Shown: one piece after another, positions 42,927 to 60,334 of the stretch
How the letters are laid out: each line of letters opens with the position of its first letter
How positions within the stretch are numbered: the stretch's first letter is position 1
Source: Microthyrium microscopicum
Taxonomy: Eukaryota
DNA length: 64,000 bases
Direction: 5' to 3'
Assembly (NCBI GenBank): GCA_010405405.1
Contig: MU004231.1
Coordinates: forward strand, 4,018,884 to 4,082,883
Notes under the pieces: generated by a model
Seen by the model: the letters and a program-made list of their open reading frames with translations, nothing else
Told to the model about the DNA's origin: nothing
Databases searched by the model: none
Translations under genes and position numbers: made by a program

Positions 42927-44660
42927 ATGAAGGGCCTCTTCCGACGCGGCAACAAACACTCCCCCAACAACCCCTCCACACCCTCAAACACCCCAACACC
43001 ATCATCAAACAACCCATCCGATCCACGCACAGTATTCCCATCTTCTCGCTCCAATAGCGGTGGTAGCGCCAGCTCCGGCGGCGGACACTTGGGATTCGCT
43101 CATCGAGGCCGTAGCAACATGGCAGCAGTGCAGAACGTTGAAGACAACGATGATGGTCCGCTGCCAACGTGTCCAGATCCACATGTTGATCCGGCAGGCT
43201 ATTTGCGGAGTATTCAGGCGGTAAGGGAGCGGTGTGGGGTTGTGTTTGACAAGGCGAGGAGGAATGAGTTGAGGCATTTTGAGGTGGATTGGTCTAAGTT
43301 TGACGAGACCTCTAAGTGGGTGGAGAAGATTATTAGAGTGAGTTGATCTATTGGCAAGGGTTGTGGGATGGTGTGGCTAATGGGTGTGATTGTTGTAGAG
43401 AGACTTTCAGGGCGATTATTCAAAGATTCCTCCGCATGGTCGATGGCAGCACTTTGAGGTTGGTGGTAGACCGAGAGTGGGTCAGCTTATTTCGACTTGG
43501 CCGAATTCGATTGTCGATGTTCAGGAGCAGACGAGACGGCTGATTGACCTATTTATGGTTTCTGTGCTGTTGGATGCTGGTGCGGGCACGCAGTGGAGCT
43601 ATAGGAGCAAGGAGAATGGCCGGTTGTATAATCGCTCAGAGGGCCTGGCTGTTGCGAGTATCGAGATGTTCAAGGCTGGCGCATTTAGCTCTGATCCGGT
43701 GGAGAAATGCCAGGTCGATGCCGAAGGCTTGAAACAGTTGACAGTTCAGTATTTGGGCAAAGGGCTACAAGTCTCTGAACACAATCCAATTGAAGGACTC
43801 GAAGGCCGGACAGGTCTTCTTCAACGATTAGGAGACGCCCTCGCAATCAACCCCGAAATGTTTGGAGCCACAGCCCGCCCAGGAAACATGCTCGGTGGGT
43901 AATCTCAACGCTTTCTTCGCACATAGCTAACTTATACAGACTACCTCCTCGCCCATCCCACCACCGAAGCATCCGGCGGCCCCGTCATTCAAGTAACAAC
44001 TCTCTGGGACGTCCTAATGACCGGCCTCGCACCAATCTGGCCCGCCAGCCGACACACCATCAACAACATCCCCCTCGGCGACTGCTGGCCCTGCACCACC
44101 ATGCCCAGCACTCCCGATTGGGCCAACTTCGTCCCCTTCCACAAACTCACGCAATGGCTCGCCTACAGCCTAATGGGCCCCATGGAACGTCTAATGGGTG
44201 CCCGATTCCGCAATATCAAACTCATGACTGGCTTGCCCGAGTATCGCAATGGTGGCTTGCTGATTGACACGGGACTACTGACGCTCAAAGAGGCGGATCG
44301 GAAAGTGGGTGAGAGACAGTACCATGAGCATATGAAGGCACGGGGTGTAGAGAGTATGGAGGTTGTGCCGGCTTTTGAACCGAGTGATGATGTTGTTGTT
44401 GAGTGGCGGGCTGTTACGGTAGGGTTCTTGGATGAGATTGCGAAGAGTGTTAATGAGCGGTTGGGTTTGACGGGGAAGAGTGCGTTGAGTTTGGCACAGG
44501 TGCTTGAGGCGGGTACTTGGAAGGTGAGTTTTGCTGAATGTTTGGAATGTATGATGAATTGCTAATGGTCTTGTAGGGCGGTCGTGAGATTGCGGCGGTT
44601 TCGAGACCGAATACGAAAGAGCCGCCTATTATGATCATATCGGATGGAACGGTCTTCTGA
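42927..44660 (+). CDS. URC4: Uracil catabolism protein Urc4/Urg3 family (DUF1688)
   Basis: YLRSIQAVRERC, IPPHGRWQHF, SVLLDAGAG, RSEGLAVAS, PFHKLTQWL.YS, TGLPEYRNGGL, EWRA.TV, LEAGTWKGGR and terminal SDGTVF. Introns 43338-43398, 43895-43939 and 44524-44576. Confidence 0.93.
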
Positions 44661-44992
44661 TTCGAGATCTCGTATCCTTATGCAAAAGCCCAGAGCTGAC
44701 TCTGGCAATGTCCTCCGGAATCGACAGATTGAGCGCTCATACGCTGGGGCACTGGCTTCATCATTATACTCCTTCCAATACCTCTATCAAAAGCCGGCCC
44801 GGTACCACCAACTATACCACTTGTTCAATCTTTCCCTCTGGAGTCCGATTCCCCTCTATTATATCTTAGACCACGACAAATCACATGATTACCCCTTAAT
44901 GTATGATATCACTCATAACCAAAAATAAAAAGGTATCATCAAATCATCAAATCGCTAACATCCAAGAACCTACTTTGACTGTCCATACATTG

Positions 44993-45726
44993 CTAATACA
45001 TCCCCGGTATCAACTGCCACCTCGTACTCTGGCAATACTTCTTCCACAGCTCCCCATACTTCTCATCACAATACCCTTCCAACCCAGGCATCGCATTAGT
45101 CACGATATTACTCACATACATACCCCCCGCCAAAACCGCATACACCGGTCCCCCCAACGCCATCCCATACCCTATACCAAACAACACATTGGCCGTTTAA
45201 TTCACATGTCTCGTCATCGCCCAGAAACCACTCGTGCACAGCTTCCCCTCATTTTCCGGCTTCCTCTTGAACGTATGGCGCTGTATCTCCGCCGCAATCT
45301 CAAGCCCTACGGACGCATAGAAAATACTCGCTCCTACATAAAACAGCTTCTCATTCCAGAACGGATTCGACGCTCCTGCGCTGTGCTGGTCGCTTCGTAT
45401 AGAAAATCTGCGAGTATCGCGAATGTTGCGAAGGGGAGTGTCATGGGCTCGCGCATTAGGCTGTTGAACCAGAGGATATGTTTTGCGGATAGCACGGCGG
45501 GCAGTGGCGCGACGAGGAAGGGGAGGCGGGGGTAGGTATGTCCGAGGACGCTGAGTGTTGCTGGTGTGCCGAGGGGGATGGGCGGGACGTTGAGGTGTTG
45601 GAGTGGTGGGCGGGTGGGAGGAGGTATTGGAGGGGCTGGTGAGGAAGCGGCCGGTGTTGAAGAGGAGGGTGGGGAGGAGGGGGTGTGGGCGTAGATGCCT
45701 CGCTGGACTGAGACGTCGGCGGGCAT
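44993..45726 (-). pseudogene. Disrupted steroid-5-alpha-reductase C-terminal-like/DUF1295 membrane protein
   Basis: Homology-like blocks lie in different frames (QRG.Y, LFNTGR, LQY, KH..W...REPM, EIQR..FK..P.N.GKLCTSGFWAMTRHVN). An in-frame TAA at 45197-45199 is followed by the remainder ...YCDEKYG..W..Y......LIPGMY. Confidence 0.8.
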
Positions 45727-46374
45727 TTTGGCGGTTTGGATGCTGAGGGGGAGATAGGGTGGTGGTGGGTTGTAGAGTGGGAGTCGGGTTGATATATTGA
45801 TGGATGTTGTGAGGCATAAGGGACTTGAGCTGACGTGAGAGCGCAAGTGGACTAAGGGGAGATTGATTGGACTTTATGGTCTTTGCCTTATTGATTGTTT
45901 TATCTTTAATTCTCTCTGATATAGCTTTCCTACTTCTAATACTTTTAAGGTCGAGGTATTTTGGGTTGACAAGTGAGAATATCATTATCGTTGTGATAAC
46001 TGGCGTCCCAATATCGATCCGGAGCAACATTATTGCTACAATCAGAGAAAGAGTTGCGAGCATGGCAAACATGAACGACCATTTGTTCTAGTTCTTGTTT
46101 GTATATATTCACTAAGTTATCAAAGGTCTTAAGAATTTTCAATGTCGGTTCATTTCGCTCAGCTCCCAGTCAATAACGAAACAGTCGGAGTTGAAAATGC
46201 TCGGACTAATCTGAATGATGTCAACTTTTTTTGCAGAATCACATATAGTACTGAAAAGGATTGATTCAATTTCTACTTGGACCAAAATCTCTAGAAAACA
46301 AACTTGTTCGATTGGTTTCTAGTTCTTGAAAATGCTGTGACAAATCAAAACTGGCTAGGGTGGACTTGACTTTC

Positions 46375-46530
46375 TGTTAGAAGGTGATCCAAAAGGGACA
46401 AAGCTTTTGGGTGGTAGAAGATAATATTAAAACGGACAAGTCCTTAATCTAAGGGTGTGGGAAGTATTTATTACTTATATAATTTGTACTAAGTTAGTAT
46501 TTTCTTAATATTAAATAATATTTTTTAATA
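46375..46530 (-). repeat. 3' LTR (156 bp) of the Copia element
   Basis: Begins TGTTAG and aligns without gaps to 56545-56700, with 23 differences that are all transitions. Confidence 0.92.
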
Positions 46531-49500
46531 CTCCTTTTTAATAGTAGTACAAATTAATATTATAAATCTTATTTATATTATCTAAAATACTTATTTCTTT
46601 TAAATTATATAATACTAGTATATAACGTAAGTTAGTACTTAGCTAGAGGTTATAAGGCTACGCACTACTATATTAAGGTAAATTAATATAAATAACTTTT
46701 ATATTAACTAAAAAATTATATATTGTTTAGATATAGTTTTTTAGATCTACTAGATTAAGCTCTTTAATATAGGTTTTAAACTTTATAGAAATTAAAGACT
46801 TTATAAGACTATTTATAATATTCTTTATTATTAGAACCTAGTCTATATTAATTTTACCTTTAGTAACTTAATTATAAATAAAGTAATACTAGATATTAAT
46901 ATATTTTAACCTTTTATAAAATATTAGGTTCTTAGCTAATGCTAGTATTCTAAGGTTATTATTATATATAGTAATAGCTAAAGGGCCTTTGTATTAAAAG
47001 TTAGATATTAATTCTTTAAGCTAGATTACTTCTTTAGTAGCTTTAGATTTAGTAATATATTTAGCTTTATAGCTAAATAAGGCTATTATTACTTATTATT
47101 TAGAGCTTTAGCTAATTATTATACTACTAATCTTAAAAATATAGCTACTTATTAATTTTTTTTTCTCTTTATTTCTTTCTTAATTAAAGTTAGTTTAGTT
47201 TATTAGATTTATTTCTATATTACTATTTTTAATAATTAGTCTAAGGTTCTTAGTTTTATAAAGATATTTAAGAAGATATTAAGTAGCTATTATATATTTC
47301 TTTACTAGATTTAAGGAGAAATAGTTAAGGATTAATATTAAGTAGTAAAGATTAGGTTTTATTCTAAGTATAAGATATATAACTAAGCTAATAAGAGATT
47401 AGTACTATTTAATATCTTACTCTTTAGCTTTACTAGTATTAGTAATAAGCTTAAGATTATTAAGTATTAGAGTTTTGACCCTTTTATTAATACTATTAAA
47501 TTCAAAGTTATTAAGGATCTTTTAATAGTATATATCTTAAAATATTATAAGTTTTAACCCTCTACTAAGCTTTTTATAAGTAATTTTAATTCTTAAGTAA
47601 TAAGATTTTACTAAGGTTTATTATTTTAAAACGTTTAGTAAGTCTTTTTTTAAAAGACTTAATTACTTTAAGGTTTTTATTAAATATTAAGAAGTTATTA
47701 ATATAGATAGTAATAATGACTTTTATTTTATAATTAATAAAGATATTTTTATTATAAGAATAGGGTTTAAAGCTAAAATTTATAAGTACCTTTTAAAGTA
47801 TAAAGAACTAGATTTAGGAAGCTTGCTTAAGTTTATAAATAGCTTTATTAAGTTTAGCAACTATACCTTTATAGGTATAGTTTAGTAGTAATTCTATATA
47901 AATTATTAGAACGTTTTTTTTTAGGTTTATATTATTATAGAGAAACGTAGTCTTTATATTTATTTAATAAATATATTAGTTATAAAAGATAGCTAGTATA
48001 AAGAGTAGTCTCTAGCTTATTAATTTAACTATAAAGGTAAAGGTTTTAAAGTAATTAATTTTATATACTTACTTAAAGTTATAAACAACCTAGCGTACTT
48101 TATAGTAAATAATATTACTTTTTAAGTTCTATTTAATCTTAAGAACGTATCTACTAGATATAATATAAGTGCCTTTTAGAGAATAAGGAACTATATCTTA
48201 TATATTATTATTTAATAAAGATAAATACTTATCTTTAATAATATCTATTTAGTTATAAATAAAAGAAGATTTAAGTATTTAGATATAGTTCTTTAGTTTA
48301 AGGTTATTTTTATCCTTTTTAAGAAGGTAAAAGTTAGGTAATATTATTATAAGAAAGAGTTTAATAGTTTAATGTTTTTTAGTAATTAAGAGAATCCTAA
48401 TATACTTAGTAATTTCTTTAAGAGTATTTTCTTTAGGCTTAGATTTAATAATAGCTTATATTTCTTTTCGTTCTTTATAAATTATTAGAATTTTATTAAT
48501 ATTATCTTTCTTAGTAACTTATTCCTTAGTAAGTAGTAATAAGAGATTAGATTTTTCTTTATTAGTAAATATAGTAAGATAAGTGTCTTTATTATTATTT
48601 AGAATATAATAAATAAGTTTTTTATTAGGTTTAACTATATTATCGTAGAGTAAAGTTAAAGACTAATTTAGTTTATTATATTTTTTCTTAAAGTAGTTAG
48701 TAGCTTTATATTTATAAGAGTACTCTCTTTTAATAGAGGTAAGAGTAATATATAAATAAAGACTTATAAAGAGTATAAGATAGTTTATTTAAAGGATATT
48801 AAATATATATAGTAGAAATTCTAATTACTTAGGAAATGTACTTTCTTTAAATTAAAGATTTTTAATAATTTTAATAAAGCCTTTGCTAGTGTTTTAGACG
48901 TAATATTAGTTAGTTTTAATTTAAATATTATAGCTAGATTTGTTATAATTAAGAAGGAAATATTATTCTATTCTAGTATTAGTTTTCTTTAGGCTATCTT
49001 ATAGGATAGGTTTCTAGTAGAGAGAGTTAATAATGTAGAGATTTAAGAGATTAGATTCTTTATTATAGAATATTTTATATAAAGATTTGTTTTAGTAATT
49101 AATTAAGGTAGTTATAATATTAATAAGAATAATAGTAATACTAATTATTTTAGTATATAGTATTAGTAAGAAGTATATATAGTATAGTAGTAAATAAGCT
49201 ATATTACTTAGAGATTATATACTTTTTTTAAAAACTTTATTTTATTTAGAATTATATAGAGTTATTAGTTTAGGGTAGATTTTATTCTTTTATTATATAG
49301 TATCTATATTAATATTTTAGAATTCTAAATTATTATTATATTTTATAACTTTAACTTTATTACTATATTTATTCTTAATTTAGAGTCGCTATTCTTTAAT
49401 AAGAAATAGTACATTAATCTTTAATAATATAAAGTAGATCTAACGAAATTAAGAATAATTATTTATAATAATAAGCTAGTATAGCTTTTACCCTTTTTTA

Positions 49501-50461
49501 TTATTTATAGTAGTAGGGTTAGTAAAGAGACTACTAAGATCTATATATACTCTTTTAAGCTTTTAAGTTATTTAATTTTATATAGCTTTTAAGTAATTAA
49601 ACTAGATTTTTATTACTTTATTATAAGTAGTATAGTTAGTAATATAAAAGTAAGTAAACTTAATTTAGCTCTTTAAAGTACGTTATAGATATATCTTATT
49701 TATATATCTAAGGCGTTAATACTAGAGTTTAGTAGATATTATATATTCTTTAAACGTAAAGATAGTATTTATTAGTAGTTATATTTAGTAAGTATAGAGT
49801 TATATTTACTATTTAAATATAAGGATAGTATTTAAAGAAAGCTATTAAAGAGTATAAAGTTATTAAGTAAAATAACTTACTACGCTAATAAGGGAACTAT
49901 TATTATAAAGAATTTAAGCTTTAGAGTTCTTAAACTAGACTTTAACATTAGTTTTAAGATTATTAGAAGTTAGGAGGAGCTTCTTTAGTAAGATAATATT
50001 AAAAAATAAGCTAGGGATATAGGCTATGTTATTAAGAATAAATATTTTATAGACTTTATTATTATTTAAGTTAGTAATATAGGTAGAAATATAAGTAGTT
50101 TCTATTCCTTTAATATTTACGTTTCTACTAAGTCTTAATAGTTATTAATTATTACTATTATTAATAAAGCTTTTAGTAAAATAGCTTAGATTATTAGTAA
50201 TATAGTATAAAGTACTAGAGTTTAGAACTTAACCTTTCCTAGCTTTTATAACGAAGACTAAGTTACTTTAGAATTTTTTATTTATATTAATAGTAAAAAA
50301 GGTAATTAGGTTAATAATATTAACTATAATTTAGACTTAGTTATATTTATAGTTATTATTACTAAAGTTGTTTTTAATATAATTAACTTAATCTTAGTTA
50401 TAGAAATTATACTTATTAATATTAAGTTAATTTTATAAGGATTAATAAGAGCAGCTTTATA

Positions 50462-51333
50462 CATTGTGAAAAAATTATTATGCATCGCAAATTGGACTAC
50501 GTATCCGACGGTAAAACGGTTATTTTAGTTATTTTAAAGACATTAGATGCGCATTGGATGCATATTGGATAAAGTACTAAATAATTCTAGTTATTCTAGT
50601 TATTTTAAACTCATCGTAGTTATTTTAAATATATTGAAAATCTATCGTAGTTATTTAAAATCTATCGTAGTTATTTGAAATCCATCGTGGTTATTGGAGA
50701 CATTGGAACCTGAATAGGCAACTTTAAGGTATAATTTTTATATTACTACTTAGAGCTCGTTAAGCTCTATCTAGATATAGTTTTATTATTTTTATATCTT
50801 AAGTGTTAATTGAGTTATAATTATTTAAACATAAATATATTTTTTATTTTTCGATTTCTATTAATAACTTTTTAAATATAATTGTTATAATAATAAAAAG
50901 TACACCATTAGATAGCCCTCGTTTAGATAAGTAAGTTATAATTTAAATTAGAGTTTATTATCTAGTCGTTACTAGTTGTAGCCAAAAAACGTTTTTTGGA
51001 CTTTAATATTCCTTTTTTTATTTATTTCTAGAATCCTTGCTAACTCTTTGGTTTTTCTACCGTTTTAATTCTAGATTAAACTAAAGGTACTAAACCCTAT
51101 ATTTTAGCCTATAGTAAGGTCATTAGGCGCCTAGCTAGATTAGTTAATTAGTTATTGGACTTACGACTTTACTAAAATCCTTTTATCTATTTTATTAATC
51201 TTAAGGTTATCGTAGGTTATTGTAGTTATTTTAAAGTTATTTCTAACTCCTTAGATAAGGCACTACGTATAATAGTCATAGGTATTATTAGTACTATCAG
51301 ATAACTCAAATTAATGATAATCTTTTCACGATG
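50462..51333. mobile_element. Non-autonomous TIR element (TA duplication) nested in the Copia
   Basis: TIRs of about 19 bp: cattgtgaaaaaattatta and (reverse complement) catcgtgaaaagattatca, flanked by TA. Internal 20-bp tandem unit tctatcgtagttatttaaaa x3 at 50641-50700. Less RIPed than the host element. Confidence 0.8.
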
Positions 51334-52691
51334 TAATTAAGAGAGATAGCTTTAGTAAGACTAACTTTATTATTATTAAGAATAGTATTATTAAGGGCGT
51401 TCTTAAGTTCTACCCTTAATTTAAATGCCTTAGTCTTTTTTAGCCTACTAGTTAATTAGGCGTTTAGTAGCTTCTTTAATATATTTATTAAGCTTCTCTT
51501 AAGACTTAAAGAAAGTTTTTTTAAGTTTAGTATTAGTTAAGTAATTAAAGTAGCTATTAGGTTTATTAAAGTTACTATATTGCGAATAGGAATAATTTAG
51601 ATATAATTAGGTTTTAATACTAGAGTTAATAGTAGTAAGAGCTATATTATTATTCTTTTTTAATTCTTCTTTAGTATAGATAATAACTACTAGCTTATTA
51701 AATTCTATAAGGGGTTTATTAGTAGCTAGATCTTAGTATTTAGCGTTTTAGTATAGAGGAGTAATAATATTATCTATAATAGCTAGGATATTCTTAAGAA
51801 ACTAGATATTTTAGAAATATTTAGGAATTTCTTAGCTTTTTTTAAGCTTATAAAACTTAGTCCTAATCTTAAGAATAGAGTTTTAAAGGGTAGTAGCGAA
51901 TCTATTTAGTCGTTATATATAGTCTTAAAGTCTATTAAAGACTTTCTCAATATAAAAGAAGCTAGCTAACTTATATTAAATTAAGAGGATAGATAAAGCT
52001 TTAGACGTATTAAACTTATTAATAATTATTACTTTTATATTTAGTTTTATAGTAGTATAGAGAATTTTATAGGCTTTAGTATTATAATAGTACTAATATA
52101 CTTAATTATTAAGAGTCTTAGTAAGAAGATATACTTTAGCTTTAGAGAAGAAGGTTTATAGTTTATTAGATTTTATTAAGTATTTAAACTATAGTCTTTA
52201 GAGTCTTTAGTTAGCTAAGCCTTAAAAACGCTTATAGTTAGTAGAGTAGATAGCTTTAAGGATATTGTTTAGTTTAGACTTTAACTTATTAGTAGATAGC
52301 TCTTTTAAGAAATTAGAGAGTATAATTAGGTTAAATAACATTTTAAATAGAGAGGTAGTAGTAGCTATAGTAGCAAGAGCTACTTTTTCTATAAAAGACT
52401 TTTTTATAATTCTATTTATTAGTAGGTTATATATTTTAGTAAGAGATTTACGAAAAGTTTCTATTTATAAGGTAATAACTTATTAAATAATTTATTAAGT
52501 AGTAGCGTCTAGTATTAAGGAGTTAGGGTTTATTAGTTATTAAGTTAGGGAAAAAAGAATAAAATACGTAAATTAACGAGTTAAACTAATAATCTAATCT
52601 AATCTAGATCTAATTTATCTAAGAGCCTATTTACTTTTCTACGTAGATTTTTGTAATCCGTATAGAATTATCTAAGCGCTTAGTACAATTA

Positions 52692-53015
52692 TGTAATATT
52701 CTACTACAACCTAATAGATTTAAAGCTTCTAGTATAATTTACGCTAAGCCTAAATTAAGGATCCTACGCGGAAACGTTAAAAATATTATATTATAAGATC
52801 TAATTAGATCTTCTATTCTCTACTATATTCCTTCTTATCTTTAGGAATATTCTTTACCTCTACTACTATCTAATATTACGCGTCGTTATTTCCTCTCTAG
52901 ATAGTATAAATATATAAGTATTAGTAGTAGTAAGTTAGATAGAATGCTTAATATCTTCTTTACTATTTATTACTAATCTTGATCCCTTGAGGTGCACGGA
53001 CTACTTTCCGTTACA
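52692..53015. mobile_element. Probable solo LTR of a different retrotransposon
   Basis: TGTAAta...cgTTACA ends, with atta/acta flanks consistent with a RIP-altered 4-bp TSD. Contains a TATA-like tataaata. Unrelated to the Copia LTR. Confidence 0.55.
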
Positions 53016-53019
53016 ACTA

Positions 53020-53381
53020 TAGGTGTTTATTTTTGCAGCGTAATAAAATTACGAGCAATACTACTAGAACTACCCCTAATAATCTAGCTTATAGGCTAGC
53101 TATAGTAAGCTGTTAAGTAGTCTAAGAAGGTATAGAACGGTAATAGAAAGAGCAATATCTTAATTATCTATTTAGTATTAAGTTTCGTTAGAGTTTGTAA
53201 TATTTGTACACGTAATATTCTGCAAATTCTAGTAGTTTGGAGAACTAGAAAGTTTTCTGGCGCTGGATTACCTTATTAGGTTTAGTAGGTCACGTTTTTT
53301 TGCAATAGCCGCGCTTTTTAAAAATGCGCAAGATTCTTAGCAATTAGCTAATATTCTGCGCCATAAAAACCGAACACCCTA
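53020..53381. mobile_element. Possible small TIR relic
   Basis: Weak TIRs: taggtgtttatttttgcagcg versus reverse complement tagggtgttcggtttttatggcg. RIP-like interior; no TSD resolved. Confidence 0.35.
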
Positions 53382-53539
53382 CTAGAAACCAGATATTTTA
53401 GCGCTAAACGTGATGCCAACGTGATATTCTGCCAGCACCGCAAGAAAAAGTGAACAGGCCCTAAGCCACATCACACCCGTTGACCGGCGTTCTTAACTCA
53501 GCTGCGCTGAAAATCTCGACTCATTCTTTCATACTCATT

Positions 53540-55093
53540 ATGGAAGACACCCGTTTTGAGTCGATTCTCAAGCAACTTCACTGTGCTAAGAAGACGAAGG
53601 TGCAGATATATGATAGTAGGGAACAAACGAACAAGGAAGACTGGTCTGATGATGCCGAGCTCCTGACAAGGCTGAGAGGTGTAGTGAGTTGCCTAATCGA
53701 GCCCGAATCCAACTATAGCACTCTGTAATATTTTGCGTAGTCCTCCTTGGTCAATAACGACTCAATCCATACCCAGCAAAATGCCTCCACGAGCCAAACA
53801 CCACTGTTTGTGATGTAAGTAGCTCGGTCTCCGCTTTTAGTTTCCTAGCTAAGCTCTGCCTAACTGTTCGATTACTAGCTCTACCACTGGCGTGGGAGAT
53901 CCTGATGGCATAAAAAATCCTTTGAATACATCGAGATCATCACTACAAGCTATTATAGACACTTGCAACCTGCCCCGCGAGCTTGTACAGGTTCTAGCGA
54001 TGCGATTGCCCCATGTATCGCATCACTTTCAATATGAACCGGGAAGCTTGGAAGCAAGCGCTATTAGTACGTGTCGTATCTAGAGCTCTAAATCAGTATG
54101 TTAATCATCTACATAGCTATCTTAGCTCGATTACCAAGGAACAGCATTCATATCACCGTTGCTCTTCGAGTGAGACTCCTGGACAATGCATGTGTCTGTT
54201 TGTTGATTACGAAGTCACCTCAGGATTCAGCAGAGCTAATGAAACTGTGCATCCGACGACAACATCAGCTTGCAAAATACCCGTTTCTGTTGCTGTCGTT
54301 CGTCCTAGAGTATCGATTGGCTTCGTACGAATCGTGGCTCGACCGTCTTTGGAGCCGAGTGGACAAGCTAGAGGTTAGCACTGGTATGACAGCATGGCCA
54401 AGAGCAGAAGATTTGGAGCCAAACACCCAAGATTATGGACCGATGCTCCAGGAGCTACATGCCGTCAATGTTGAGCTACTGGTTGCGGAGACAACGATGA
54501 AGTTCGGTCGAACCTTTGTCGATTTTTGTAGAAAGACATTGGAGATCACCAACGAGAGTCGAAAGCGGGTCGGCTTACCAGAAATGCCATCCTCTGAGCG
54601 GCAGAAAATTGAAGTAGCTATTGCGTTCAACGCAAGATTGGCTCAGTTCAGAGATGATAAATTTCGTGAACTGTTGAACAGAGTTCAATCTCAAATCAAC
54701 GTGGTGTGTTCCTAGAACCTGAATGATGTAGTTGGTTTGACGCTTAATACCTCCAGACCTTCAGTCTTGTCACTCAGCAAGACAGCCGAACGAACACACG
54801 AATTGCCGAGTCTGCTGCCAGGGACAATCAAACTATGAAGACAATTACCGTCATTACCTTATTATTTCTGCCCTCAACACTACTAGCAGTGAGTATTCAA
54901 CCTTGATACAAATGCATAATGTGCTCATCTAGGGTAGACCATTTGGAGTAGTGGAATTTTCAAGATGGAACCGGAAAGAAGCTGGAAGATTTTTGTTGGG
55001 ACGTCTGTTGCACTTACAGCTGTTGTATTTGTTGTTTGGATAACGTATCGAGCTTATGTAGCAGGACGACTTCGGCATTCACTAAAGTTCTAA
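53540..55093 (+). CDS. Fungal CorA-like protein (helical bundle + 2 C-terminal TM helices), 6 exons
   Basis: Introns 53684-53740, 53815-53878, 54067-54116, 54704-54756 and 54889-54937 splice into a stop-free frame. It ends QSQINV.FSL..QQDS......IAE.A.RD..TMKTITVITLLFLPSTLLATIW, then a second TM helix. Confidence 0.85.
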
Positions 55094-56544
55094 AGTTTAT
55101 GATATATGTCTAGCATCGACATAGAGTCTTTTCCTAATTTCCAGAATCGTTTTCTAATGTGTAATAATTTTAAATTAGTCATTTCGTGGCTTTCATATAA
55201 AGGATTTGACAAAGTGATTGTGCAGTTAGATGTAGCTGATCTAGAGGACGTAATTTGGTACTAGATCTCTTGGATCCCTAAGCAGGATGTGTTCACGATC
55301 TCTTGACAATAGGCGCCATCTTAGGTAGCAGTGGCAATATGATGGTGCAGGTTGTTGCAGTGAGAGGGCCCTCGATAAGGAGAGATGGGACCGCCTTTAG
55401 TTGATGGACCACGTGTTGAAAGATCGGAGGAGCAGCGGCTTTAAAACTGGTGGCTAAGACTAGCTGCAAGGGAGTCTTGCTCAAAGCTAGGATAAAAAGG
55501 CTATATAGATTAACTAATATGTATAGAGCGCCTATCTAATATACTACGTCTATACGCAAAGTTTAGTAGATATACTAAGCTTAGCTAATATAAGCTATTA
55601 TAGAAAGGAATAATAAGTAATAGTAAATACTAAATAAGAAGTATTAACTAAGATATATAATAAGAAATATTATTATTCTACTTCTTATAAATAAATTATT
55701 AATATTTATTTACTAGTTATAAACTAATCTTAAACTTAATTTATTAAAAGCGCTATAGAGTAGCCTATAATATAACTAAGTACTTATATTAAGTTTCTAA
55801 TTAAGCTAAGAGACAAGTAGTTTAGTACTTTATTGCCTAAAAATCCTTAGTCTTAAAACTATAAAAGGCTAGCTTAAAATAACTAGCTTAATCTATTAGT
55901 AAGTTATCTACTTTACTACTAGTATTTTACTAGTTTATAATTAGTATTTAAGTTATAATAAACTAATTCTTATATAGACTATACTTATTAAGCTAATTCT
56001 TATAGTAGATAACTTAATTATAATATATATAACTTAGGAACCTATTTTATACTATTTATTTATTTATCTAAATAGTTATATATATATTTATAATATAAGA
56101 GAAAAATAGTAAATTCTAAAGTTTATTATAGATAATATATATATACTATATTAATTATATATTAAAACTAATTCTAAAATAATTTTATCTTTTTACTTTA
56201 TTTAAGAAGTAAAACTAGTTAAATAGTAGTAATATAACTTTCTTATAAAGTAATTAGTTAGTATTATTTTATAATAGGACTTAGAACTTAGTAGTTTTAC
56301 TATAGCTTTAGTTGCTCTTAGTAATTAATCTTTAGTTATAACTACTTTAGTAAGTAGTTAAACTACTTTTAGAAGATAGTAGAGCATTATAGCTTACTAA
56401 GGTAAATTAATGCTTACTATTATAAGGTAAATAAATAGTAATAATGCTACTATTTATTAATAGTATTGTTATAGAGGTTTATTTAGTAGAAAGAGAATAA
56501 AGCTATAAGGAGAGTAGTAGTAAGTATACTTTAGGCTTATAATT

Positions 56545-56700
56545 TGTTAGAAGGTGATCTAAAAGGGACAAAGCTTTTGGGTAGTAGAAGATAATATTAA
56601 AATGGATAAGTTCTTAATTTAAGGGTGTAGGAAGTATCTACTACTTATACAATTTGTGCTGAGTCAGTATTCCTTTGATGTTGAATAATATCTTCCAACA
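56545..56700 (-). repeat. 5' LTR (156 bp) of the Copia element
   Basis: TGTTAG...CCAACA termini, followed by the TSD ctttc. Confidence 0.92.
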
Positions 56701-56930
56701 CTTTCTTGAAAACTAACACCACTAAGCTTCCGTTTACATTCAATTCCTGTCGAATCTCATCAAACACTTCTTCTCTCCGGTAACTCACGTGTTGGTAACA
56801 ATCTCCAGCTAAATCGTGCGGTTTATGGCTCACTAGGGTCCTCCTCGTGGAAGACTGCGGTAGAGGCAACATACAGGGCGTTTGCGCTTAAGCGGTCGAA
56901 GCGTTATCAACATTACTAAAGCTCGCAGAG

Positions 56931-58678
56931 ATGGCTCCAAACGGTGTTGACGCATCAGCCCAGCAACAGGAGAGCTATGCATGTGCCTTTTGTCGACGTC
57001 GGAAGCGGAGCTGTGACAAGAGAAAACCTCAGTGCTCTGCCTGCTCATCTCGCAATCTCGAATGCGACTATTCTAAGTAAAGCACTCACATCCTCAAGGA
57101 TTCGCCATGAACTCATCAAACACACAGACCCCCTGCTCCCAGTGAATCCGACTTACAGCAAGCTAGAGAATGGAGCTATACGCGGCCGCTTCTTACACCA
57201 GCGGACAGCGAGCAATCTTTTCCTGCAGCATACTTTATGGACTACCGTGTATTCAAACACAGCCACATGCAGCTACCAAAGAACAGCTGGACTGCCTCAC
57301 CGGTGCTTCTTGACTTCATTGGCGATCCGGTTTCACTGGCACTGGAATACTGGGAGAAAGTCCACTGGTGGCTACCCATCATATCCAAAAAGCGGTTCCA
57401 TGCACATGCTTTGAACCCTCTGGTCCCACGCGGTGTAGATACAGTACTGCTATTATCCGCGATGAAACTCATCTTATGGCATCCCGATCCAATTACACGC
57501 CCAGACGCCGAGTATATGGCCATCCGCCATGCCTTTGTTGAGGCTGAGAGTGCAGGAGTATTAACACTTCAGTTGCTTCAAGCGAAGATACTCATTACCG
57601 TTTACGAATTTGGACATGCCATTTATCCTGCTGCTTACTTATCGGTCGGCTCATGTGCCCGCTACGGCGCAGCTCTTGGAGTGAATCTGTGCTTGGAATC
57701 TACAGACCTAGCTATTTCTCCTGAAGCTGCTCTGGAGGTGGAAGAGAAGAAAAGGGCTTGGTGGGCTGTACTGCTGCTAGATCGGTTTGTATTTGTAACT
57801 CAATCTCTGGGTGTTGAAGGCTCACAGAAACAGCACCATGCAGCTAGGCAATCCTACGCAAATGCTCTGCACAGAGGAGCCGGCATCCGCCAGCTATCTA
57901 CCCGTGGACGACGCATCGTATGAGGCTGGGGTATGACAACACCCTCGTCTTAAATTAAGTCTACTGACTTGATGCCCAGATTATCACCAGCGAACCATTT
58001 CGAGCGTCGTCTCCGGCATCGATTGAGATGGGTATGCTTGCGAGAATGTGTCAAGCGACATATCTGCTCGGTCGTGTATTAAGATTTCAAGCAAGAAACA
58101 ATGAGCACGAAGACGATGAGATGCGGCAGTCAGAGAAAGTGCAGCTTGATAGGACACTACGCTCTCTCTTGAATTTATTATATGTGGAGGGATCAGTCAA
58201 GCGACTCCCTGTTTGTGCACAGTCGAGTATCTGCTATAGGTACGTCCCACGATCTTCTCCCTCGCGATCATGTGGCTGAGAAAATGTGCTAGTGCCCTCA
58301 TTGCTTTGCACGATCCAGATGCCAAACGAGCAGACTCAGAATATTTCGACTTGACCATGGAATTTCTCAAACCAGTCGTCAATGAGATGACCTGGGCTTC
58401 GGGCGTATGGTTCAACGATCGTCTTGTCAGTATAGCTGATGCTTCACCGTTTCTACTCTTCTGGGCCTATCAAGCTATCACGATATATCGTCGCCTAGAG
58501 GGGCAATACGGCTACGAGGCTCAGCAACATATGTTGCTGATGAATGAGAAGCTCAGAGTCATGTCATTAAGATGGAAAGCTGGAGGTAAGCATTGAAATC
58601 TGTAGCAAGGTCATTTTCTCACCACCAACAGAGGCATATTTGCAAATATTGAAAGCGCGAGAGATCACAATGATGTAA
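56931..58678 (+). CDS. Zn(II)2Cys6 transcription factor with fungal-specific TF middle domain
   Basis: Exon 1 reads CAFCRRRKRSCDKRKPQCSACSSRNLEC (missed by the ORF track), then intron 57077-57127. Later motifs VHWWLPIISKKR, YEFGHAIYPAAYLSVG.CAR and RAWWAVLLLDR. Further introns near 57785, 57931, 58240 and 58586. Confidence 0.88.
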
Positions 58679-58730
58679 TGAATGAAAGTAGCACGATGAT
58701 CAAAGAAGTTTCATGCTATCTACGAATGCA

Positions 58731-59533
58731 CTACTTTTTGGGCTCTCCCAAGGTTGCAATAAATTCATCCGTAGTCATGACTCGAGATGCGAAGAGTGGC
58801 CAAATCATTTCCGTAGCAGCTTTCTTCATTTCAGTGCTGAACGCGGCTGTGGCATCGGACCTGGAAATTCTGTCAGTATCGCTATTCTTGGGCGGCGAGT
58901 TTCCCATGCTTACAACAAGGTAGTCTTGTATCCACTGGAGAAAAGTTAGCGAAATACTCCGAAGATTAGATCAGTGAAGCATTGTTGTAACTCACAGATC
59001 ATATGCATATCGGGCTGACGATTCAACGCAGTGGTTGGTAGTCAATCCAGCCAGCACTACCTTTGTGATCTCCCTCTGGCGGAGCTGATAGTTCAGATCT
59101 GTGTTCTGGAACGAGCTATTACACCCAGGTTAGCACCTCTCTAGTCACTGAACGCCTGAAAGATGTTTACGTACCTGCTTGACCAATGTTTGCTGACAAC
59201 GACATCTCCATTCTCCAGATCTGGCTCCATGCCCTTGAAGATCGTGCCTCCAAAGCCACCCTCTTCGAACACGTTGTTCTCTTTCTGGCTTGAGTGGACG
59301 GCCATCATGTGTTTCCAGCCGTCAAAGTTGCCAGCTCTGGAAGGCTGATGCAACCCATAGTATATAGGAATCTTGTGAGCGCGTGCGGCAGCGATGAGAT
59401 CGAAGATATGTGCGATTGTGTTTGAGTCTTTGATCGATTCTTCGAGTCGAGGGTACATCTTTCCTTCTTCGTGGAGAAAGTCATTGTAGGGATCGATGAG
59501 TAGTATGGCCGTTTTGGAGAGATCGGATGTCAT
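58731..59533 (-). CDS. Isochorismatase-family cysteine hydrolase, 4 exons
   Basis: LLIDPYNDF, SKHWSSSSF.NTDL, AGLTTNHCVESSAR and DATAAFS give the Asp/Lys/Cys triad positions. Stop TAG at 58731-58733. Confidence 0.9.
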
Positions 59534-59746
59534 CTTGGGCTTTGAATATGGGAATGAAGATTTTCAAGTTATATTTGGAGACAATTCTCTGGTTGTATGT
59601 AGAATGTATTTGATTCAAGAAACAAACATTGCCAACTATATATATTATGGACTTTACGACGTGCTGACTTGTATATCTATAACACACATGAACTTTCGAC
59701 TTGTTTTGGGCACTTGAATCATCCATTGGCAAGTAATACATTAGCG

Positions 59747-59779
59747 GCGGATGCAGTGGAGCAAGGCGGGCGCAGTGGA
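59747..59779. promoter_or_regulatory. Candidate Zn2Cys6 binding sites: direct repeat GCGG(A/G)(T/C)GCAGTGGA
   Basis: 12/14 identical copies at 59747-59760 and 59766-59779 in the divergent promoter. CGG triplets are the usual Zn2Cys6 half-sites. Confidence 0.3.
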
Positions 59780-60334
59780 CCGAGGCGGCCGCCAAACAAC
59801 TTTCTATATTACTCGAATATAACTGATATGCTGCTAGGATGTTTCAAATCTTGAATGGGCCTGCCGCCTCAGGAATCTGAAGGCTACCATCACTCGTGTT
59901 GCAGATTATATGACCACGATGGCAAATCATAAGCAGATAGAAGGTGATGGAGTGCTTATAGCTCGTGAAATAAGCCTTACGCATAAACTGAATTTGACGC
60001 TAACAATAGGACCAAGACATGAGGTGAATGTTTATTGATGTCAGAGTCTTAGGTAGAACATTTTCTACAGATTTATGGAAAAGGGGTGGAGGAAACCGGC
60101 CGCCGCTAGTCAGGCAATCCCATGGTCACTGCAGCTTTCCATCCTTATGGCTGATATTTTCATGATTTGAAAAGACGCAGCAGATTCTAGTCGCTTTCAA
60201 GTCGGCTAGGATAGTGATAGCTTACGATTTTCAGGGCGAACTGAATATTCATCACGATCCTTTCTAGTTGACACTCTTTGCCTTGGAGCCCTCAGGAACT
60301 CCGAGTATTCATTTTCACAAAGATATCGTCAAAG

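Follow-up and report, generated by a model that had tools for sequence, protein, structure and literature searches.

An intron-bearing CorA-fold gene enclosed by a single RIP-mutated Copia retrotransposon of Microthyrium microscopicum

The window is a stretch of 64,000 nucleotides of contig MU004231.1 of Microthyrium microscopicum and contains no gaps (0 N). A repeat search of the window detected a direct repeat at 46375–46532 and 56545–56702 with 85% identity. Trimmed to 156 bp by alignment, the two copies start with TG and end with CA and correspond to the 3′ LTR (46375–46530) and the 5′ LTR (56545–56700) of a Copia element on the minus strand. At its inner end the left LTR has TA in place of CA, a change of the RIP type. 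Both outer LTR ends are adjoined by the TSD CTTTC (46370–46374 and 56701–56705, direct reading). From the base composition, this match of five out of five letters has a chance of about 1e-3. A PPT-like purine run, AAAAAGGAG (minus-strand reading, 46531–46539), adjoins the 3′ LTR on its upstream side in the sense of the element. A reading made earlier from the sequence alone (the sequence-only reading) had described the LTR pair, the TSD and the polypurine tract in the same way. Its PBS relic was not recovered: beside the right (5′) LTR none is recognizable by eye, no tRNA gene for comparison is found within 45000–58000, and RIP may have erased the site. The element lies in a divergent promoter region of ~0.5 kb that separates a gene of the DUF1295 type from one for a Zn2Cys6 transcription factor. 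From TSD to TSD it spans 10.3 kb, compared with lengths of 5.1 and 5.6 kb, and LTRs of 165 bp, given for two other Copia elements of Dothideomycetes in the accessible text of 10.1101/2025.11.13.688278.

The remains of the coding region are located beside the left LTR. The RT and RNase H region (46733–48614, minus strand) is interrupted by many RIP stop codons. Pfam RVT_2 matches it in one of six frames (~47601–48176, E 5.3e-24, 85.6 bits with a cut-off of 31.6), and all seven Copia polyproteins used in tblastn searches align with it (E 1e-7 to 6e-42). The integrase region (48834–49502, minus strand) is a weak tblastn match (E 0.015) to residues 486–700 of the Copia polyprotein P0002, i.e. to its rve and SH3_retrovirus domains. 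The protease beta-barrel region (49976–50222, minus strand) is likewise a weak match, to Pfam Pol_BBD (E 0.029, under the family cut-off). Together these regions form a block from about 50.2 to 46.7 kb with the expected minus-strand order PR, INT, RT and RH. No gag domain was found in the element. When the domain positions of P0002 and P0003 are extrapolated to the element, 50223–52077 (minus strand) is assigned to gag, degraded by RIP, and to the beginning of the leader. This extrapolation puts the gag start at 51050–51550 and not at ~52500, where gag had been located from the sequence alone. A less-mutated, high-copy patch is present in the gag region (~50400–50900, RIP indices and contig depth). 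At the other end of the element, the leader adjoining the 5′ LTR (56094–56544, minus strand) is RIP-mutated and has other genomic copies, as indicated by variant contigs at 56443–56512.

RIP targets duplicated DNA. C-to-T and G-to-A changes of the RIP type saturate the Copia body, and the element is dead. The ratio (CpA+TpG)/(ApC+GpT) is 0–0.45 over 46400–53199 and 55600–56599, with the exception of the patch at 50400–50799 (0.59–0.94). In most 100-nt windows of the sampled RIP-mutated parts (51800–52800 and 55500–56400) only 0–3 CpA+TpG per 100 nt are left. Between these parts lies a block of normal GC content (~53250–55500), flanked on either side by AT-rich, RIP-marked DNA as described before. 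This block holds a gene. The ratio is 0.9–1.45 in the gene and in the flanks, and the gene contains 14.06 CpA+TpG per 100 nt compared to a background of 14.07. Thus, the gene carries no RIP signature.

Of the 156 LTR positions, 23 differ between the two copies, every one of them by a transition. In the left LTR, 15 of them are A/T, all within positions 94–155, which is the inner half. In the right LTR, eight are A/T and seven of these are found at positions 16–85, again the inner half. The RIP pattern of the LTRs is therefore mirror-image, with mutated inner and spared outer halves, and this fits a single unit. Two independent, truncated Copia copies around a long-resident gene, with the outer CTTTC identical by chance, would be an extremely improbable arrangement. 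Such genomes often contain genes flanked by relics of RIP-mutated TEs, the PBS is unrecognizable at the right LTR, and the right margin of the gene block is degraded like a TE. Against this stand the complete TSD match with its low chance probability and the common orientation of the LTRs. Furthermore, each copy would have to be truncated exactly on its gene side, and the repeat search yielded one LTR pair only, with no second LTR or inner TSD.

The gene runs on the plus strand, opposite in sense to the element, and has its own transcription start. Its transcribed region extends from about 53485 to about 55300 according to spliced, RNA-derived contigs (X5); an adapter-like loose end precedes 53485, and the cover extends into the bin 55001–55600. 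Open frames, spliced contigs and homology define a coding sequence at 53540–55093 for ~426 residues. It consists of six exons (53540–53683, 53741–53814, 53879–54066, 54117–54703, 54757–54888 and 54938–55093). In X5 contigs showing 0 differences, all five introns are skipped; each has GT..AG ends. Transcription and correct splicing bear out the complete, apparently functional six-exon gene that had been proposed. The closest full-length relative, the 436-residue protein P0012, is colinear with 53540–55042 from the start codon over its residues 1–417, with identities of 38–51%. Exon 4 is 100% identical to protein P0008 and has 129 relatives at E<=1e-3.

The product is a predicted CorA-fold membrane protein with two TM helices; the fold is assigned by proxy via P0012. 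The model of P0012 (pLDDT 85.5) is matched by Foldseek to Thermotoga maritima CorA (PDB 4i0u, E 1.7e-9, ~420 columns). Pfam CorA (PF01544) exceeds its cut-off in five of nine scanned relatives (27.6–33.5 bits), and three more fall below it. Exon 5 of the gene alone scores 21.6 bits and P0008 26.1 bits, with a cut-off of 27. P0012 and T. maritima CorA (4i0u, 2iub, 3jcf) are alike in the N-terminal α/β domain, the long stalk helix and the two C-terminal TM helices. Their identity, however, is only 13–15%, and the GMN motif is replaced by W-S-x after FLPxTL. The position aligned with GMN reads W-S/T-x in the relatives, and GMN occurs anywhere in the sequence in only two of 129. In the protein of the window FLPSTLLA is followed by TIWSSGIF at this site. 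The protein is thus assigned to a Pezizomycotina family without the GMN pore motif. Mg2+ conduction is doubtful because the motif is replaced by the W-S-x stretch.

The margins of the normal-GC block differ from each other. The left margin (52548–53250) is single-copy and shows graded RIP. CpA+TpG climbs from 0–3 to 8–9 per 100 nt, CpG is kept at a steady 1–4 per 100 nt, and 52601–53200 is covered by one X3 contig only (X3 is a DNA run). The right margin (55500–56008) is fully RIP-mutated, with a GC content of 0.12–0.29 and 0–3 CpG per 100 nt. Its inner edge is sharp, and the X3 bin depths reveal no other copy. Spill-over of RIP into single-copy DNA has been recorded in Dothideomycetes (accessible text of PMC9453070). 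Spill-over alone explains the right margin poorly, since RIP is as full there as in the Copia body, the edge is sharp and no other copies are found.

The segment that is not common to comparable copies of the family lies between the gag side and the 5′ LTR and has the gene at its centre. Depending on the edge chosen, its foreign or unique part comprises 3.0–4.0 kb, and DNA beyond a normal Copia amounts to ~4–5 kb. The ~2 kb of normal-GC DNA described from the sequence alone are present as the block itself, whereas the extra DNA is larger. Contig ends and joints place its left edge at either 52078 or 52547. They put its right edge within 56009–56093, although composition taken alone would also allow about 55500. 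The 5′ segment of the element had been thought to begin at ~55300, but other copies resume at about 56009–56093. Block A (52078–52547) belongs to the Copia leader or forms the left end of the insert; it is RIP-mutated and has at least one other genomic copy. A second X3 contig, of depth 804.4, covers it and lacks 6 nt at 52362. A contig joint ends at 52078, and a loose end of run X6 is found behind 52547. Block B (56009–56093), for which the choice is between leader and right insert end, is the part where other copies start matching again. Two contigs have loose ends before 56009, and joints are present at 56030 and 56093. The edges of the insert show neither a TSD nor terminal repeats, be they inverted or direct.

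Over 52601–55600 the X3 depth corresponds to one contig (653.1), whereas the Copia bins have extra contigs. The comparison comprised 471 aligned pieces in all. At its likeness threshold of 80%, the gene is single-copy in the X3 DNA run and the Copia parts are multi-copy; copies driven below 80% by RIP would escape this comparison. A name-based protein search returned five proteins, one of them from the species with the identical protein.

One exact X3 contig (52066–56252) contains the whole gene together with RIP-mutated DNA on either side of it, and X3 contigs also cross the junctions of the flanks and LTRs (45790–46889 and 56638–59793). The identical TSD, the co-oriented LTRs, the polypurine tract at the 3′ LTR, the absence of N and this contig all indicate one insertion enclosing the gene. 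The locus therefore represents a single minus-strand Ty1/Copia LTR retrotransposon that inserted once and duplicated CTTTC, with an intact gene inside, as the sequence-only reading had it. The intervals 46889–52066 and 56252–56638 are bridged only by short, variant contigs, some of which differ from the window (e.g. at 52055, 52060 and 56443–56468), and the best holders of the sequence share only 0.85–0.93 of the sampled words. A misassembly, in which the gene segment from another Copia copy or locus was joined via repeats, might be suspected from this. The X3 contigs provide no independent proof against it, as X3 may be the assembly data of the window itself. We nevertheless regard an artefact as very unlikely. 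The window contains no N, and the RIP-diverged copies are distinct enough for assembly. Moreover, the contig 52066–56252 would still embed the gene in RIP-mutated repeat DNA, and only its link to the LTRs of the same element would fall.

In one X3 and one X6 contig, block B (to 56093) is followed by block A (from 52078) with 17 letters in between. This order is not predicted by the simple picture of a canonical copy minus the insert. It would be accounted for if 52078–56093 (4.0 kb) were a non-autonomous DNA transposon, Helitron-like or other, that captured the gene and then went into the Copia leader. Its family-specific ends would be blocks A and B, and the B-then-A joint would be a head-to-tail pair of units elsewhere. 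Consistently, other copies are found for the end blocks only and the interior is unique. Whole-gene capture and tandem junctions are reported for fungal Helitrons in the accessible text of 10.1101/2025.11.13.688278. There, ToxB-HLE, FoHeli and HELPO1 resemble the present case in that a complete intron-bearing gene was captured at the DNA level and unit–unit junctions occur. In contrast to these, recognizable Helitron ends, a hairpin or a target are missing here and the gene is not amplified. A 5′ TC, a 3′ CTRR and an A/T target could not be read by eye at either edge in either orientation; RIP and the uncertainty of the edges (tens to hundreds of nucleotides) limit this reading. The edges also have no terminal inverted or direct repeats. 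A variant X3 contig is apparently colinear across 52078 and ends near 52096, which suggests that in another copy block A runs on into the gag side without a break. Finally, capture by copying also predicts a duplicate gene and RIP. A DNA transposon is thus unlikely.

The sequence-only reading had offered two origins, the first being a Copia that carried the gene as cargo. The whole gene, antisense and with promoter and introns intact, would have been acquired in the Copia leader by template switching in the particle that gave rise to this copy or from a gene-bearing progenitor. It would have been part of the element RNA and arrived by retrotransposition, and the other gene copies would have been lost before the next RIP cycle. 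The position between the LTRs of a single TSD-flanked insertion agrees with this, and retention of all five introns in a gene antisense to gag-pol is what an antisense passenger would show. LTR retrotransposons do transduce host sequences, and some families have antisense extra ORFs (accessible text of PMC7264820). However, the gene region is found only once in the X3 run and is covered by a single contig over 52601–55600, and the gene is free of RIP although both LTRs were RIP-mutated after insertion. A source gene or progenitor would have constituted a duplicate of more than 3 kb and hence a RIP target. With a leader of at least 1.7 kb and a passenger of 3–4 kb, the RNA would have reached ~10 kb. 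According to the same text, transduced sequences are usually sense and fragmentary. This origin is therefore disfavoured, and we consider it quite unlikely. A retro-transduced gene of the Bs1 type was also considered; the antisense orientation, the five of five introns, the completeness from ATG to stop and the one copy found rule against it.

Most likely, on balance, the gene was put into the Copia at the DNA level and was not carried there by the element. Relocation is preferred to retro-transduction because any copying route makes a duplicate that is open to RIP. It implies that the genome never contained two gene copies during a sexual cycle. The segment would have been relocated into an already resident element. 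Candidate routes are the capture of a chromosomal fragment in the repair of a break in the leader and recombination among repeats. RIP would have wrecked those parts of the Copia that are multi-copy and worn away the insert at its left margin at least, while the single-copy gene was spared. The element would not have moved again after acquiring the gene. The later DNA-level capture suggested as the second origin thus fits better than cargo, but the edges bear no TSD or terminal repeats that would point to a mechanism of insertion.

A functional single-copy gene within one Copia is unusual but not unprecedented. In the plant LTR elements that captured host genes (maize Bs1, sorghum), host coding sequence also lies between the LTRs and is functional in some cases, as outlined in the accessible text of PMC7264820. 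These captures are usually sense, processed or fragmentary and propagated with the element, whereas here a whole antisense single-copy gene with its own promoter and five introns is present and the composite shows no sign of moving. The antisense extra ORFs of Grande (gene23), RIRE2 and Retand resemble the present gene in being transcribed antisense from their own promoter inside an LTR element (same text); a figure legend there also lists Botrytis Boty. In contrast to the gene described here, which is located between gag and the 5′ LTR, is restricted to a single copy and has 129 cellular relatives, those ORFs are situated between pol and the 3′ LTR in most family copies and are without cellular homologues. 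Single-copy genes in RIP-affected AT-rich compartments and RIP leakage are described in the accessible text of PMC9453070, and RIP-affected compartments are also a subject of PMC3105345. Such genes likewise form normal-GC islands in AT-rich DNA, and here RIP fades into the single-copy left margin; the present island, however, lies inside the two LTRs of one TSD-flanked element and not among unrelated TE relics. A keyword search of the open-access literature found no whole fungal gene inside an LTR element.

The route of gene mobilization proposed from the sequence alone finds no support here and is not established by this locus, as it is one locus in one genome, and there is no sign that the composite ever moved. 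If cargo were the true origin, the locus would represent an LTR retrotransposon moving a whole gene in a RIP-active fungus. Provided that the structure has been read correctly, the locus offers a clean natural case of a functional single-copy gene inside one RIP-killed retrotransposon, in which RIP comes to a halt at most a few hundred bases away from a gene that is transcribed. It allows one to ask in what way a resident element takes up unique DNA, over what distance RIP and its accompanying heterochromatin extend, and whether nesting changes the expression or the evolutionary rate of a gene.

Two direct repeats of 156 bp each (46375–46530 and 56545–56700) form the outer ends of the single AT-rich island in the window (46.4–56.6 kb) and are the LTRs of a minus-strand element. 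Their termini are TG..CA, except that the inner end of the left LTR reads TA in place of CA. CTTTC adjoins the outer end of each LTR, a match with a chance of about 1e-3 as judged from base composition. The LTRs are unlike at 23 of 156 positions and all 23 differences are transitions. These features bear out the proposal of the sequence-only reading that one insertion encloses the region. Fifteen changes are located in the left LTR (positions 94–155) and eight in the right LTR (seven at positions 16–85, one at position 130). The outer 85–93 nt of each LTR, beside the unique flanks, are nearly clean and the inner halves are mutated, an edge effect of RIP where the repeated unit ends. The mirror pattern would be expected for one unit hit by RIP from inside. 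Two truncated elements with a TSD match by chance are extremely improbable, given the rarity of such a match and the fit of the mirror pattern to one unit. The distance from TSD to TSD is 10.3 kb. By comparison, a passage of 10.1101/2025.11.13.688278 gives sizes of 5.1 and 5.6 kb and LTRs of 165 bp for two further Copia elements of Dothideomycetes. The insertion site is a divergent upstream region of roughly 0.5 kb between a minus-strand DUF1295/ERG4-like gene (45626–46246) and a plus-strand gene for a Zn2Cys6 + Fungal_trans transcription factor (56801–59800). The empty-site joint (46374 to 56706) was not seen in the four runs aligned to the window.

Matches to Copia coding domains on the minus strand and a purine run adjoining the left LTR in element sense identify the element as Ty1/Copia on the minus strand with the left LTR as its 3' LTR. 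The purine run agrees with the PPT relic suggested for this position. A PBS relic, also suggested, is not recognizable by eye beside the right LTR, and a tRNA gene search of 45000–58000 found none. Pfam RVT_2 matches one of six frames of 46531–53300 (minus strand, stops read as X, E 5.3e-24), and all seven Copia polyproteins fetched with the RVT_2 region map to reverse transcriptase and RNase H at 48614–46733 (tblastn, E 1e-7 to 6e-42). Integrase is represented by a weak tblastn match at 49502–48834 (minus strand, E 0.015) to those residues of the reference polyprotein P0002 that hold rve and SH3, and the protease barrel by a weak Pfam Pol_BBD match at 50222–49976 (minus strand, E 0.029). Extrapolation from reference proteins indicates that gag should start near 51050–51550, instead of lying at about 52500 as had been assumed. 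A Pfam scan of 15 six-frame X-translations (48500–53300 and 55100–56544) gave any match in only two and no domain in the insert margins; one is the Pol_BBD match, and the other, to TMCO5 (E 0.065), was taken as chance. In a patch of the Copia at 50400–51400, which contains a 20-nt tandem repeat of 3.2 copies at 50632–50695, RIP has left far fewer mutations (index 0.94 at 50400); the tandem repeats found in the search were not informative. The summed contig depth of the DNA run X3 at 50201–51400 is 5–9 times that of its neighbors. This patch may be a nested, separate high-copy repeat or a region common to a more abundant family.

Inside the element, an open six-exon model on the plus strand (53540–55093) encodes about 426 aa. 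Contigs of run X5 skip exactly all five introns, with GT..AG ends and no differences. They also splice three introns of a gene at 43.3–44.6 kb, and since introns are spliced in two genes the X5 contigs are RNA-derived, a nature that the label of this run gives only as a guess. The latter introns are short, end in GT..AG and belong to a plus-strand DUF1688-family gene (43001–45614, Pfam E 2.5e-72). An adapter-like loose end precedes 53485, and no X5 contigs are found on 46601–53200 or 55601–56200. Both neighboring genes, the DUF1295-type and the Zn2Cys6 gene, are still represented among the RNA-derived contigs, so their transcripts have survived the insertion of 10 kb between them. In further RNA-derived contigs of X5, LTR-like sequence continues into GC-normal sequence unrelated to it (loose ends at 56542, 56637 and 56667). 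This points to transcription of other LTR copies or solo LTRs elsewhere, or to their presence within transcripts.

A 436-aa protein of Mytilinidion (P0012) is colinear with the gene from residue 1 at the start codon through residue 417. Thus, the gene is full length, and a complete six-exon gene antisense to the element, as first read from the sequence, is confirmed by splicing and colinearity alike. The deposited 251-aa model P0008, a hypothetical protein of Microthyrium microscopicum that is identical in exon 4, includes no exons other than 4 and 5, along with some intron read-through. It appears to be truncated, and the RNA contigs and the 436-aa relative back the longer model. An exhaustive protein search with exon 4 (194 aa) yielded 129 relatives at E≤1e-3, of which 55 reach E≤1e-10, after a word-index search against longer proteins had found no match among 1148 candidates. 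Next to P0008 rank environmental proteins with 84% and 75% identity, followed by the Mytilinidion protein. Metagenome locus scans for exon 4 relatives gave 94 and 234 pattern matches and no confirmed loci.

The designation as CorA-like holds for the fold. Pfam CorA scores above cut-off in five of nine relatives scanned and below it in three more, as it does in exon 5 of the window by itself. Modeled structurally (pLDDT 85.5), the Mytilinidion relative matches T. maritima CorA along its full length (E 1.7e-9). GMN, on the other hand, occurs anywhere in the sequence in only two of the 129 relatives, and the aligned site reads W-S-x. With the fold present in this relative and the motif absent, the product is classed by its CorA fold and is not designated a Mg2+ channel.

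One exact X3 contig spans 52066–56252 and others cross both flank/LTR junctions. X3 may underlie the assembly and these contigs are thus not independent proof. An assembly mis-join is considered very unlikely. Runs X6 and X7, labelled as a different organism, contain short contigs of about 3x identical to the window (region 43978–58048, including the right LTR/flank junction at 56634–56899) and contigs of 80–100x of AT-rich repeats only partly similar to it. This looks like low-level admixture of M. microscopicum in data of another organism.

Extra, variant X3 contigs fall on the Copia body; 471 pieces were aligned in all. The summed X3 depth over 52601–55600 equals that of one contig (653.1). 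Other copies extend into 52078–52547 (block A), where a second contig lacks 6 nt at 52362 and an X6 contig departs from the window sequence behind 52547. They resume at 56009–56093 (block B), as seen from loose ends at 56009 and from joints at 56030 and 56093. Hence, about 52548–56008 can be taken as unique with certainty, and the non-RIP core by composition is about 53250–55500. Two 30-letter loose ends have no window matches at ≤3 mismatches. The letters behind 52547 are about 74% like those from 56009 onward by eye, which was judged not significant in AT-rich DNA.

CpA+TpG amounts to 14.06 per 100 nt in the gene versus 14.07 for the window's first 45 kb, and to 0–3 in most 100-nt windows sampled at 51800–52800 and 55500–56400. 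On the left margin the RIP gradient runs from 52500 to 53400 with CpG kept, as expected for RIP spill-over into single-copy DNA; part of PMC9453070 describes such leakage in Dothideomycetes. The right margin is RIP-saturated with a sharp end at about 55500. This is poorly explained by spill-over and the right margin may be old repeat DNA.

In one X3 and one X6 contig, sequence up to 56093 is followed, after 17 intervening letters, by sequence from 52078 onward. These letters have two window matches at 3 mismatches (0.44 expected; 6 of 100 shuffles reach two). A first interpretation, that other copies lack 52079–56092, was withdrawn: the piece lengths of another record (side 27 = 46613–46639) show that such rows are "go-back" joints in plus-strand coordinates, and thus block B precedes block A elsewhere. 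A tandem leader unit could account for the joint, and so could head-to-tail copies of a mobile unit of 4 kb. The second option would suit a gene-carrying DNA transposon, which is nevertheless rather unlikely: RIP-tolerant local alignment revealed no terminal repeats common to both margins, direct or inverted, above shuffles, and no Helitron ends were found by eye. Likewise, the margins show nothing above shuffles against the Copia body in either orientation. The best alignment of the margins with each other or the Copia body is inverted and scores 29.5 (shuffle maximum 30.0).

Both LTRs are mutated and RIP hence acted on the element copy after insertion. By any copying route, a segment of >3 kb would end up in duplicate and RIP would mutate both copies, whether the route is template switching in the particle, a progenitor cargo element or synthesis-dependent capture. 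The gene is untouched by RIP and no second copy is found among the X3 contigs. Accordingly, transduction by the element, one of two routes considered initially, is unlikely, and the other, later capture at the DNA level, is favored in the form of relocation of unique DNA into a resident element. A single, un-mutated copy would also be compatible with a gene acquired during a long asexual phase, with a source copy lost early on, or with a segment that came from outside the genome. For the whole picture, we give slight preference to a relocation of unique DNA into a resident Copia that was probably already inactive at that time.

Plants offer examples of host genes within LTR elements and of additional antisense ORFs, as stated in part of PMC7264820, and Helitron gene capture is known in fungi, as stated in part of 10.1101/2025.11.13.688278. 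In contrast to these cases, the gene described here is whole, intron-bearing, expressed and single-copy, and it resides in the leader of one RIP-killed Copia copy.
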